Shown: positions 4,454 to 30,364 of the stretch, one piece after another
Numbering within the stretch: position 1 is the first letter of the stretch
Layout of the letters: each line of letters starts with the position of its first letter
IMG/VR virus record: IMGVR_UViG_3300044800_000286
Length of the DNA stretch: 64,000 nucleotides
Source: a virus
Reading direction: 5' to 3' (one strand)
The notes under the pieces: generated by a model
The model's database searches: none
The model's input: only the letters and a program-made list of their open reading frames with translations
What the model was told of the DNA's origin: nothing
Position numbers and translations under genes: made by a program

Positions 4454-6687
4454 AGCCCTTTGCTCATCAGTTCCTCGGCCCGCCCCCGTTCCGCTTCAAC
4501 AGCAGCATCATGCAGGGCCTTCTGCGTGCCGGCCAAATCCGACTGCGCGGCGGAAAGCTGCTCGTCGATCTCGGCCAGTTTCCCGGCCGTTTCCTTCAGT
4601 TCCTTCCGCAGCGCAGCCGCATTCTCTAGGAAGGTAATACTGCTCTGAAGCCGGGTTAGCTCATTTACCGGGATTTCCGTGCGGAATGTCGCCAAGTCCC
4701 CGGTGTCGAATTGGCTTTCGATCAACGTAGCTGTTTCAGCTAAGGCCTTGATCTGCTTCCACAAAGCGTAAATCCCGTTCCATTTCTCGGTGGCGGCCTC
4801 GATGGCTTGGAGCGGCTTGTTCATCCAGCGGGCGAACGTGTAGGCGAAAGCCGCCCGCTCCGCATGAAGCGCAAGCTGCTGAAGCCGCTCGACTCCCGTG
4901 GTGTCGGGCAAGATCAGGGCTTCTACGATACGTTGCAGGGGCTCCAGCCGCAGGCAACGGGCCGCACACTCCACCAGCCAATAGGACTCGATTTCCAAGT
5001 GGCGGGCGGCGGACTCCAAAGCCTGTAGCTCTTCGGCCAACTCGTGGGCTTTCGCGGACATCTTCTCCAGCTTCGCCTTGCGCTCCTCGGAGTTGCGTAT
5101 CTGGGCCGCCAGCACGCGGGCCTCGCCGTCCTTCTGTGTCTTCAGGAGGTTGGCCTGCTTCTTCCCGGCCTCCAGCTTCTCCGTGCCGCCGAAAGCGCCG
5201 AGGATGGCGTTGATCTCGCTCGGCTTGTAGGTCTTGTTGTCGATGAGGAACTGCGGACGGTTCTGGCTGGCGAAGATCGGGTCGAAAGTGAAATCGCCGA
5301 TCTTGATCTCGCCCAGATTGAATTTCTTGACAATCTCCGGGATGTCCCCGTCAAGCTTGGAGAACTTGTCCTCGCCTATCGTGTAAGCGACGGAGCCCCG
5401 CTTCGAGCGGGTGGCAACAACGGTGTGCCCGTCGTGTTCGAGCGTAAGCTCAAGGGGCTCGTCCTTGGGATCGCGGATGTACGCCACGTCAAGCTCGTTG
5501 CGTATGATGCCCTGCAAAGCCCTGTACAGCGAACTGTTGTGGGCTATGGTGAAGTCCCCCAGCAAGAACAATCCGTCGCCATCAAGCTCAAAGCCAAAAT
5601 ACTCCCCCCATCCGGCAGATGTGGCATGGAACCCTGTTGTAAGAGGATTCTTACTTGAATCGTGCTTGGCTTGTTTACGTTGAATGCGGGTGGGAATGCT
5701 GGTCAATTCGCCAGCGATCCTCACTCGAAAATATACCCCTCCCCTGCCGTTCTGGTCTTCCTTTTTCGAGGGTTTTACCGATGCTCTGAAACCAAGGGAT
5801 CGAGCAATAAACGCAGCATCGTCCGCCAATGCCTTTAGTTTTGATACAAACTCAAACTGCTTTTGACCCTCTAGGTGGCCATCGGAATCCAGCAAACCCG
5901 CCAACAACAACATGCGATCACGGCTGCTGGCGGTTTTGTATTCCCAAGAGAGGCGTTTTTCCCCATCCACGACAAGGCCTAAAGAGCGGAATTTCGACAA
6001 CAACGCATTCTGCGAGTGTCCTCTCTTGGGAGCAACCCACTTCCTGCCGCCGCTGAAGACCCATGTGCTTGCTTTGTTGCCTTTCTTACCATTTCTCCGG
6101 AGCCTCAGGTTAAACTTGTCAGCGACTTTATTCAGATAGTCAAGCACTTCTTGGTCTGCCGTCGTAATCGCCAGAGAATGTAAGTTTGTGCTGCCGTCCC
6201 CCAGCCATAGACCAACGAAATATGGATTAAACACTTCACGATTACACGGGAATGTTATGGCGGAAGAACGCTGAAGTCGGGCAGAGTTGCGAAACCATTT
6301 CCCTCGGCACACTAAATCCCTAACTTCTATTTCAATTGGGTGTCTATAGGATGGGCATTTGCCCTGCAATTTCTTCCCGTTGAACTTAAGAGGTAAGATG
6401 TGCCTACTGTTGCAGCGCCAACGGTCGCCTTTTTTGGGGATGATATCATACATCTCGTCCCAGCCATGAGCAAGACTCAACACTCTGCGGGGTTTGGAGT
6501 CCGGCCCCATGAGCAAATCGCTGACCTGAACGTCTTCAACGTTCTTGATAGTTCCGTCATACATGAACACAGGAGTGCCCTTGGCTAGGCATTTCCCCTC
6601 GTTTGAGGGACCGATGAGTATGGTCAGCCCTTGTATGTCCAGTTCAAATGCTGGCCATGGCTGGAAATTTTTGCCGCTGAATTTCAT
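4411..6687 (-). CDS. SbcC/Rad50-like ATPase, N-terminal half, intein-containing
   Basis: MKFSGKNFQ...LTILIGPSNEGK|S (Walker A), Q-loop FASQ, coiled coil, ends at zinc hook CPKC; start moved to ATG 6687. Confidence 0.85.
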   Translation of the reverse strand: MKFSGKNFQPWPAFELDIQGLTILIGPSNEGKCLAKGTPVFMYDGTIKNVEDVQVSDLLMGPDSKPRRVLSLAHGWDEMYDIIPKKGDRWRCNSRHILPLKFNGKKLQGKCPSYRHPIEIEVRDLVCRGKWFRNSARLQRSSAITFPCNREVFNPYFVGLWLGDGSTNLHSLAITTADQEVLDYLNKVADKFNLRLRRNGKKGNKASTWVFSGGRKWVAPKRGHSQNALLSKFRSLGLVVDGEKRLSWEYKTASSRDRMLLLAGLLDSDGHLEGQKQFEFVSKLKALADDAAFIARSLGFRASVKPSKKEDQNGRGGVYFRVRIAGELTSIPTRIQRKQAKHDSSKNPLTTGFHATSAGWGEYFGFELDGDGLFLLGDFTIAHNSSLYRALQGIIRNELDVAYIRDPKDEPLELTLEHDGHTVVATRSKRGSVAYTIGEDKFSKLDGDIPEIVKKFNLGEIKIGDFTFDPIFASQNRPQFLIDNKTYKPSEINAILGAFGGTEKLEAGKKQANLLKTQKDGEARVLAAQIRNSEERKAKLEKMSAKAHELAEELQALESAARHLEIESYWLVECAARCLRLEPLQRIVEALILPDTTGVERLQQLALHAERAAFAYTFARWMNKPLQAIEAATEKWNGIYALWKQIKALAETATLIESQFDTGDLATFRTEIPVNELTRLQSSITFLENAAALRKELKETAGKLAEIDEQLSAAQSDLAGTQKALHDAAVEAERGRAEELMSKGLCPKCGRSLKHACQ
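5536..6591 (-). mobile_element. intein with LAGLIDADG homing endonuclease (352 aa) in the SbcC Walker A
   Basis: K|CLAKGTPVFMYDG ... FLLGDFTIAHN|S; VGLWLGDG and LAGLLDSDG motifs. Confidence 0.92.
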
Positions 6688-30150: not shown

Positions 30151-30185
30151 ACAAAAACAAAAAGGACGACCTTTTCAGATCGTCC
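30151..30185 (-). terminator. attenuator terminator in front of the tRNA/rnpB array
   Basis: GGACGAUC-UGAAAA-GGUCGUCC followed by UUUUUGUUUUUGU. Confidence 0.85.
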
Positions 30186-30239
30186 TCGGAATCTCTTGGT
30201 TGGTTTCTGCTTATCCTTCCCAACCATCCTCCGAGGACA
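30181..30239 (-). promoter_or_regulatory. antiterminator hairpin, mutually exclusive with the terminator
   Basis: UGUCCUCGGA/UCCGAGGACG plus UGGUUGG/CCAACCA; uses 5 nt of the terminator 5' arm; its 5' strand is leader codons 33-39. Confidence 0.75.
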
Positions 30240-30336
30240 CGGTATCGGCCCCTGCCGCGAAGCCTTCAAAGGCTCCGACCGCGCATACGCCGCCCAAGGT
30301 GTCTGCGGCGGCGACGAATTGGAGACTGCGGTTCAT
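30211..30336 (-). CDS. 41-aa attenuator leader peptide MNRSLQFVAAADTLGGVCAVGAFEGFAAGADTVSSEDGWEG
   Basis: Below the ORF-track cutoff; contains a cognate codon for all 14 downstream anticodons; stop codon lies in the antiterminator loop. Confidence 0.8.
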   Translation of the reverse strand: MNRSLQFVAAADTLGGVCAVGAFEGFAAGADTVSSEDGWEG

Positions 30337-30356
30337 GTCTTCGGTACTCTCTATCT

Positions 30357-30364
30357 TGATACTG
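30357..30364 (-). promoter_or_regulatory. CAGTATCA promoter-like motif for the leader/tRNA operon
   Basis: Same motif precedes many minus-strand genes. Confidence 0.55.

Follow-up and report, generated by a model that had tools for sequence, protein, structure and literature searches.

Results

Organization of the tRNA operon and its leader region

The stretch of DNA analysed here (64,000 nucleotides, referred to as the window; w denotes a position in the window and g a position in the whole genome contig) is part of a single viral contig of 155,256 bp with a G+C content of 55.8% (IMG/VR record IMGVR_UViG_3300044800_000286) and harbors a putative leader-peptide attenuator in front of a phage tRNA operon. 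The contig encodes a tape-measure protein, intein-bearing helicases and a ribonucleotide reductase, and its 27 tRNA genes form three blocks that are sorted by amino acid, i.e. GNN+Cys+Phe (the array in the window), Tyr/Leu and Pro/Met. The unit that would be gated by the attenuator extends from w30046 to w27010 on the minus strand, on which all elements of the leader region and of the operon reside. It comprises 14 tRNA genes (three each for Val, Ala and Gly, two for Glu and one each for Asp, Cys and Phe, as called by ARAGORN), an embedded bacterial type-A ribonuclease P (RNase P) RNA (w29322-28998; 209 bits, full model length in 325 nt) and an embedded HNH endonuclease gene (w27600-27091) that is located inside the array between tRNA-Phe and tRNA-Glu. 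Owing to its position within the array, the RNase P RNA would share the transcript of the tRNAs and be gated like them.

The candidate promoter consists of a 24-nt motif (w30597-30574) that ends in the -35 box TTGACA (w30579-30574) and of the -10 box TATTGA (w30555-30550), which follows 18 nt past the -35 box. The motif occurs in four copies in the 155-kb genome, with zero to one mismatch among them, and is found upstream of all three tRNA arrays and of one further transcription unit. Across the three blocks, a TATTAT-like box is situated 17-18 nt past TTGACA and a short open reading frame (ORF) lies behind each promoter. The -10 box in the window is imperfect in that it lacks the final T, and for this reason it was not listed by a consensus promoter scan. 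Matches to the promoter motif in IMG/VR amounted to 55 loci, none of them with a downstream tRNA array, and were discarded as chance matches.

Folding predicts a structured 5' leader RNA of ~180 nt that is closed by a 12-bp stem (w30543-30362) and is placed between the promoter and the leader ORF. This 5' leader is absent from relatives of the phage, in which the promoter is found 0-30 nt before the ATG and in which several of the tRNA leaders begin only 6-11 nt past the -10 box. The sequence TATCAA (w30361-30356) probably represents a decayed proximal -10 box: its flank matches the related locus L110 at 90%, and it is homologous to the TATTAT, TATTAC and TATTGT boxes just upstream of the leader ORF in the relatives. 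The leader ORF proper, 41 codons plus a TAA stop codon (w30336-30211), has homologs in 11 relatives, and its stop codon lies 23 nt upstream of a strong intrinsic terminator (w30187-30152) that is made up of a G+C-rich stem of 10-11 bp (w30187-30162) and a U-tract (w30163-30152).

In the window, 115 nt separate the terminator from the first tRNA gene. Part of this interval is occupied by a predicted tRNA-like cloverleaf of 80 nt (w30144-30065) that is closed by a 12-bp stem and bears a T-loop-like sequence, GUUCGAUUC. It was called neither by ARAGORN nor by Rfam and is without counterpart in the relatives, where the first tRNA directly follows the terminator. When the 5' leader and the tRNA-like element were compared by blastn with all fetched loci, no relatives were detected apart from a match of 30 nt between the flank of the relic promoter and L110. 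The promoter scan revealed no promoter-like site between the terminator and the array in the window, and the leader matched no cis-regulatory Rfam family even when the threshold was permissive. A permissive Rfam match to a small RNA on the opposite strand (w30382-30482) was weak and below threshold and was disregarded.

Codon content of the leader ORF

A preliminary description of the locus had put forward that the 41-codon minus-strand ORF at w30336-30211 samples the tRNAs of the downstream array. The ORF was confirmed, and so were the counts reported for it: 29 of the 35 codons from position 7 to 41 specify Val, Ala, Gly, Asp, Glu, Phe or Cys (V/A/G/D/E/F/C), with an uninterrupted run of 17 such codons (codons 15-31), and a Watson-Crick codon is present in the ORF for 14 of the 14 array anticodons. 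Cognate codons make up 29 of 40 leader codons compared with 40% expected (P = 3e-5), and their share amounts to 72% in the leader frame (71% when the start methionine is included) versus 28% and 23% in the two other frames. The putative sensor segment, codons 7-31 (w30318-30244), contains 23 V/A/G/D/E/F/C codons out of 25, among them Watson-Crick codons for 12 of the 14 anticodons. GTG (codon 33) and GAG (codon 36), the sole Watson-Crick codons for tRNA-Val(CAC) and tRNA-Glu(CUC), are both situated within the antiterminator strand described below.

The run of 17 codons had been deemed improbable by chance. It is indeed rare but it is not unique, as the six-frame translation of the 155-kb genome contains three runs of at least 17 V/A/G/D/E/F/C residues, and a density of at least 29 such residues out of 35 is reached at three places. 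From the genome run counts, we estimate the chance of finding such a run in sense directly between promoter and array at roughly 0.3%. Because the 17-codon run alone is not unique, the decisive support is carried by the other arrays and by the relatives. A search of PHROGs with the leader peptide and three antisense ORFs returned no family.

Two mutually exclusive RNA structures

Codons 33-36 contain the 5' strand of the antiterminator, GUCCUCGGA (w30238-30230). Its partner is the antiterminator 3' strand, UCCGAGGAC (w30190-30182), which overlaps the first 6 nt of the terminator 5' arm. In this respect the earlier proposal holds in principle and needs correction in detail: the terminator exists, but its stem is longer than the 8 bp originally assigned. 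An antiterminator does compete with it; its core comprises codons 33-36 and sequesters 6 nt (originally given as codons 33-39 and 5 nt). A small hairpin, UGGUUGG/CCAACCA (w30226-30197), that carries the stop codon (w30213-30211) in its loop stacks under the antiterminator. The 9-bp antiterminator strand ends 16 nt before the stop codon and the extended two-helix duplex 6 nt before it; across the leaders of this phage and of three relatives, the alternative duplexes end 0-19 nt upstream of the stop codon. In all 15 of these leaders that bear a terminator, the terminator 5' arm plus its upstream flank can alternatively pair with the last third of the ORF, and much better so than in dinucleotide-shuffled controls (z -1.7 to -6.5 for the 15 leaders).

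Covariation was assessed in an alignment of 12 homologous GNN leaders. The antiterminator helix is paired in 99.1% of the cells, with changes on both sides at five of nine pairs, and the terminator helix in 98.8%, with compensatory changes at three of seven pairs, while slid controls reached 38-73%. Six alignment columns are common to both helices, so that covariation links three strands, as is characteristic of a two-state switch. The check by folding and covariation called for in the preliminary description thus had a positive outcome, with compensatory changes in the terminator and in the mutually exclusive antiterminator and with the sensor codons upstream of the antiterminator strand. The peptide encoded at the antiterminator strand varies among the relatives (SSE, PLE, PSG, PSE). 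As the amino acids differ while the pairing is kept, selection at this strand acts on the RNA.

In folding calculations, the antiterminator dominates in the nascent RNA, i.e. before the 3' arm of the terminator is available (P 0.87-1.0), and the terminator in the complete RNA (P 0.84-0.99). The leader RNA is thus predicted to be a kinetic switch. When the full-length RNA is folded, the region around the start codon becomes the partner of the antiterminator strand, and this pairing is not conserved in the relatives. Masks that mimic a ribosome footprint cannot represent steric exclusion inside the antiterminator loop, so that the nascent fold with a ribosome at the stop codon is uninformative on that point.

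The same module precedes other tRNA arrays in this phage and in its relatives

Relatives were retrieved via the ribonucleotide reductase encoded 4.5 kb upstream, which yielded 60 IMG/VR loci; the neighboring Smr-domain protein, used as an alternative probe for relatives, gave no match. A syntenic GNN+Cys array is present at 16 of the 60 loci, and a homologous short ORF precedes the GNN array in 11 out of 11 distinct relatives examined. Three of the relatives are complete or near-complete genomes of 463, 456 and 317 kb with 69, 64 and 62 tRNA matches, respectively, and together with the phage studied here they provided a set of 18 leader/array pairs. The layout of promoter, short ORF, terminator and tRNAs was encountered at 15 of these 18 arrays. 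The relatives' modules precede Ser, Tyr/Leu, Ile/Thr/Gln, Trp/His/Arg/Asn/Gln/Lys and GNN arrays, and the respective leaders are rich in just those residues. This agrees with the expectation in the preliminary description that further arrays, both of the same phage and of related ones, would be headed by a short ORF and a terminator with codons that track array content. When a leader was defined by an objective rule (an ORF starting with ATG, at least 15 codons in length and ending no more than 60 nt from a terminator), exactly one ORF was obtained at each of the 15 terminators and it was always the leader. The choice of leaders is therefore not cherry-picked.

In the genome studied here, the Tyr/Leu leader comprises 25 codons and is equipped with a GGAG ribosome-binding site and the same promoter motif. 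It contains two Tyr codons as well as five different Leu codons that correspond one-to-one to five tRNA-Leu genes. Its terminator ends 14 nt before tRNA-Tyr. As 14 nt leave no room for a promoter, the Tyr/Leu array can be reached by read-through only. The Pro/Met leader of the same genome begins 6 nt past the -10 box and holds CCA, CCG and CCC as well as an internal ATG. At the Pro/Met leader of the 463-kb relative (L119, positions 6442-6560), the hairpin downstream of the stop codon borrows its 3' arm from the first tRNA-Pro, namely from the 5' strand of the acceptor stem. This hints that precursor processing is controlled there in place of termination.

Own-array amino acids are enriched in all 18 leaders, and the observed match was reached in none of 20,000 within-genome permutations; for four of the 18, enrichment over the whole peptide is marginal (P 0.05-0.09). 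With G34 wobble permitted, 133 of the 139 distinct anticodons in the arrays are sampled by the leaders, compared with 108.3±3.4 under a synonymous null model in which the codons were redrawn from the phage's own usage and the peptides kept (0 of 5,000 redraws). Because coverage exceeds this null, it is the codon choice that is tuned to sample each isoacceptor, beyond what peptide composition alone would provide. With Watson-Crick pairing only, the effect is weaker (112 of 139 versus 99.5; P = 0.001), and many leaders use a U-ending codon. The position of the codons within the leaders is likewise uneven: cognate residues account for 181 of 277 (65%) in the part that precedes the antiterminator strand versus 35 of 161 (22%) within or after that strand (Fisher test, 5e-19).

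Furthermore, where tRNA genes have moved between arrays, the leader codons have gone with them. Only in the phage studied here is tRNA-Leu(UAA) part of the Tyr/Leu array, and among the Tyr/Leu leaders only that of this phage contains TTA; in a relative's Tyr/Leu leader the homologous position is taken by GCA. Two relatives have tRNA-Leu(UAA) in the Ser array and TTA in the Ser leaders. The GNN array includes tRNA-Phe in this genome only, and only this GNN leader has three Phe codons in its core, whereas tRNA-Phe resides with Pro/Met in the relatives, in which the leaders in question contain Phe codons that are lacking from the Pro/Met leader studied here. In the 317-kb relative, the Tyr, Leu and Ser tRNAs are combined in one array behind a Ser/Leu/Tyr leader, and the merged His/Arg/Asn/Lys/Phe/Met/Pro/Gln/Trp array is preceded by a leader that draws 22 of its 28 residues from those nine amino acids.

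Leaders of different arrays share MN- at the amino terminus and carboxy-terminal endings such as -DGW(D/E)G and -RVRWRGW. These shared ends point to a paralogous origin of the modules, with divergence mainly in the sensor codons. Several of the relatives' leaders end in TAG, and at one locus (L061) the next in-frame stop codon falls within the terminator loop. An amber-suppressor-like tRNA (anticodon CUA) is encoded at g1659-1731, outside of the window, and the relatives L118 and L124 possess arrays of two or three such tRNAs. Amber suppression late in infection could, judged from these sequences, override the attenuator.

Neighboring genes and occurrence

A gene for an Smr-domain protein (w30920-30576, minus strand; Pfam PF01713, E = 1.5e-7) is located directly upstream of the attenuator promoter. 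Smr nucleases cut mRNA at collided ribosomes, and the vicinity of such a gene to a leader that would sense stalling may or may not be significant. Two copies of the promoter motif (g73565-73588 and g74375-74398) flank an 810-bp cassette (w30575-31384) that contains a gene for a protein of 80 amino acids, a terminator and the Smr-domain gene. The public run X19 holds a strain that misses exactly this cassette, with 15 shared letters at the joint, which suggests that the cassette was lost via recombination between the promoter copies. In the relatives L118, L123 and L126, small genes resembling those for homing endonucleases, similar to the HNH gene in the window array, are inserted between the leader terminator and the first tRNA. 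It seems that homing elements use tRNA operons as landing sites. Two large intein-type ORFs with Hint/homing-endonuclease domains, one of them within a helicase, are present elsewhere in the window (w18785-15945 and w6759-4411, both on the minus strand).

DNA of the phage is contained in public metagenomes from peat and pond. Comparison of the region with cultured phages by blastn detected tRNA-to-tRNA similarity only, and tblastn with the ribonucleotide reductase gave no match above 60% identity among cultured phages, i.e. no close cultured relative was found. In one metatranscriptome (about half of the words, as assembled contigs that reveal neither transcript starts nor ends nor levels), parts of the array and the Smr gene are covered and w30134-30441 is uncovered.

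Discussion

The findings argue, with good confidence on our part, that expression of this phage tRNA operon is gated by a transcription attenuator of the ribosome-mediated leader-peptide type. Transcription would start from the promoter at w30597-30550, and a ribosome would translate the 41-codon leader. If the sensor codons were decoded rapidly, the ribosome would cover the antiterminator strand (codons 33-36) up to the stop codon, the terminator stem at w30187-30162 would fold and RNA polymerase would stop before the tRNA genes are reached. If, on the other hand, a cognate aminoacyl-tRNA were scarce, the ribosome would linger in the sensor segment and leave the antiterminator strand free to capture the first 6 nt of the terminator 5' arm, which would let the polymerase proceed to the genes for the 14 tRNAs and RNase P RNA. 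The outcome would be negative feedback in which a tRNA block is produced when its codon set is decoded slowly; the phage probably makes each block only under this circumstance. We infer steric occlusion, the direction of the response and its natural trigger, be it loss, cleavage or dilution of host tRNAs. A sensor of this kind cannot distinguish loss of a tRNA from starvation for the amino acid, and an attack by anticodon nucleases is hypothesized as one possible trigger.

A number of observations weigh against such an attenuator or limit its reach. We infer both translation of the leader ORF and regulated termination; the Shine-Dalgarno sequence before the ATG of the leader in the window is weak, and the proximal promoter of the relatives looks decayed in this genome. 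The preliminary description had all 14 tRNAs sampled by the leader. The codons are all present, but GTG and GAG may not serve as sensors, because a ribosome stalled on either of them would not free the antiterminator strand in which they are embedded. Six of the 139 array anticodons remain unsampled, eight leader codons are without a reader in the delimited array, and the 18 leader/array pairs are homologous across genomes and cannot count as 18 independent events. Canonical terminators are lacking at the Pro/Met leaders (none at three). A conserved protector hairpin, the 1:2 structure of classical attenuators, was not found in the leaders, and the folding calculations predict that untranslated nascent RNA forms the antiterminator (P 0.87), so that it may read through by default, unlike trp.

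The lack of a protector hairpin and the predicted read-through of untranslated RNA would also fit a leader that is a genuine regulatory element but reports the general status of translation, i.e. ribosome availability, the coupling of transcription and translation or a global slowdown, as any late arrival at the stop codon would then open the gate. In a variant of this explanation, the output includes processing of tRNA precursors by RNase P or RNase E. The Pro/Met leaders without terminator, the hairpin in one relative that pairs with the acceptor strand of the first tRNA, the tRNA-like element and the downstream RNase P RNA speak in its favor. We nevertheless consider this explanation unlikely. 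A general sensor needs neither amino acids specific for the array nor even sampling of isoacceptors nor codons that follow tRNAs when these have moved, and at 15 of the 18 leaders a terminator is present together with an antiterminator that covaries.

It is even less probable, and in our view very improbable, that the leader is a small gene of the ordinary kind, or an ORF arisen by chance, which ends at its own terminator, that the tRNAs are expressed independently and that the codon match is a coincidence arising from G+C-rich, GNN-periodic sequence. The three runs of 17 V/A/G/D/E/F/C residues in the six-frame translation, the four leaders with marginal enrichment and the 115 nt between terminator and first tRNA would fit this notion. 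It is, however, largely refuted by the permutations, the synonymous null model, the covariation and the objective ORF rule. Codon sets that are not of the GNN type (Ser; Leu/Tyr; Thr/Ile/Gln; Arg/His/Asn/Lys/Gln/Trp) match their arrays too, the codons are sampled above the synonymous null, and it is the RNA pairing that is conserved and not the peptide, for which, as for the antisense ORFs, no protein family was detected. Moreover, the Tyr/Leu terminator leaves merely 14 nt before the tRNA, and no promoter-like site separates terminator and array in the window. That tRNAs are sensed through direct RNA-RNA contact, as by a T-box, with in-frame triplets of the leader as specifier codons and without participation of a ribosome, appears scarcely credible. 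T-boxes do sense tRNA and gate terminators by means of an antiterminator, and triplets complementary to the anticodons are present in the leader. However, there was no match to the T-box family (RF00230) in w26900-32100 at the gathering score or at E values up to 5 nor to any other Rfam family in the leader. The cognate triplets are confined to one frame, bounded by ATG and stop codon, a single short RNA would have to read up to 16 anticodons, and in the relatives the promoter immediately precedes the ATG, often with a Shine-Dalgarno sequence.

Attenuation by a translated leader is compared here with the systems established in bacteria. With the classical attenuators, the phage element shares a short ORF after the promoter, codons that are tied to the product, a Rho-independent terminator, a mutually exclusive antiterminator and sensor codons upstream of it. 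It falls outside the scope of the classical family in that tRNAs, RNase P RNA and an HNH gene lie downstream instead of genes for proteins of biosynthesis or aminoacylation. Multivalent leader-peptide attenuators control the enterobacterial amino-acid operons ilvGMEDA (Ile/Leu/Val), ilvBN (Val/Leu) and thr (Thr/Ile). The ilv and thr leaders are the closest counterparts, as they likewise combine a leader for several amino acids with a terminator and an antiterminator whose 5' strand is placed at the end of the ORF, so that stalling leads to read-through. Unlike them, the phage leaders would gate tRNAs and RNase P RNA in place of biosynthetic enzymes, and they sample up to nine amino acids and 16 isoacceptors with codons that are spread over the isoacceptors. 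Further differences are the phage setting, the presence of one paralogous module per tRNA block and the absence of a clear protector hairpin. Geometry and logic are also the same as in the trp, his, pheA, leu and pheST attenuators, of which that of pheST, an aminoacyl-tRNA synthetase operon, controls a component of translation via codons for its own amino acid. All of these belong to host genes, use runs of one codon type and have protein products, whereas in the phage the controlled product itself would read the sensor codons, such that the loop is closed directly. T-box riboswitches resemble the phage leader in that they monitor the status of tRNA by codon-anticodon complementarity, employ an antiterminator and a terminator and control genes related to translation. 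They differ in that they work without a ribosome and with one specifier codon and possess a conserved Stem I and T-box, while the phage element is an ORF.

Leaderless short ORFs encoding polycysteine in mycobacteria have been described as Cys-responsive attenuators (bioRxiv 10.1101/834739). They share with the phage leaders a very short 5' untranslated region or none at all and a codon content that senses supply, but they respond to one amino acid and control protein-coding genes, and they are not known to be linked to tRNA genes or phages. The preliminary description had stated that its author was aware of no described attenuator that controls a tRNA operon in this manner. In agreement, our full-text literature search found no published case of leader-peptide attenuation of tRNA genes.

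Phage tRNA genes are usually viewed as helpers that adjust codon usage or as replacements for tRNAs that are destroyed in the host. To our knowledge, little has been described about how their expression is controlled. If the proposed attenuator operates, it would establish a direct feedback loop on decoding capacity, in which the sensor codons are read by the very tRNAs that are gated, and would extend attenuation of the trp/his/ilv type to operons for non-coding RNAs and to viruses. We tentatively go one step further, on grounds that leave the idea at somewhat less than an even chance, and propose that tRNA supply in the large phages of this clade is a closed loop which they operate themselves: attenuators assigned to individual blocks would measure the decoding of isoacceptors and switch on the block that is failing. 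They might serve at the same time as an alarm and repair system against host defences that cleave or deplete tRNAs, for example anticodon nucleases, with co-regulation of RNase P RNA for the new precursors. The combination of promoter, matched short ORF, antiterminator/terminator and tRNAs offers a signature for the annotation of tRNA operons, also in uncultured giant phages. The list of leader codons would predict which tRNAs each operon backs up, and the codons may point to the tRNA-targeting stresses that these phages face in their hosts.

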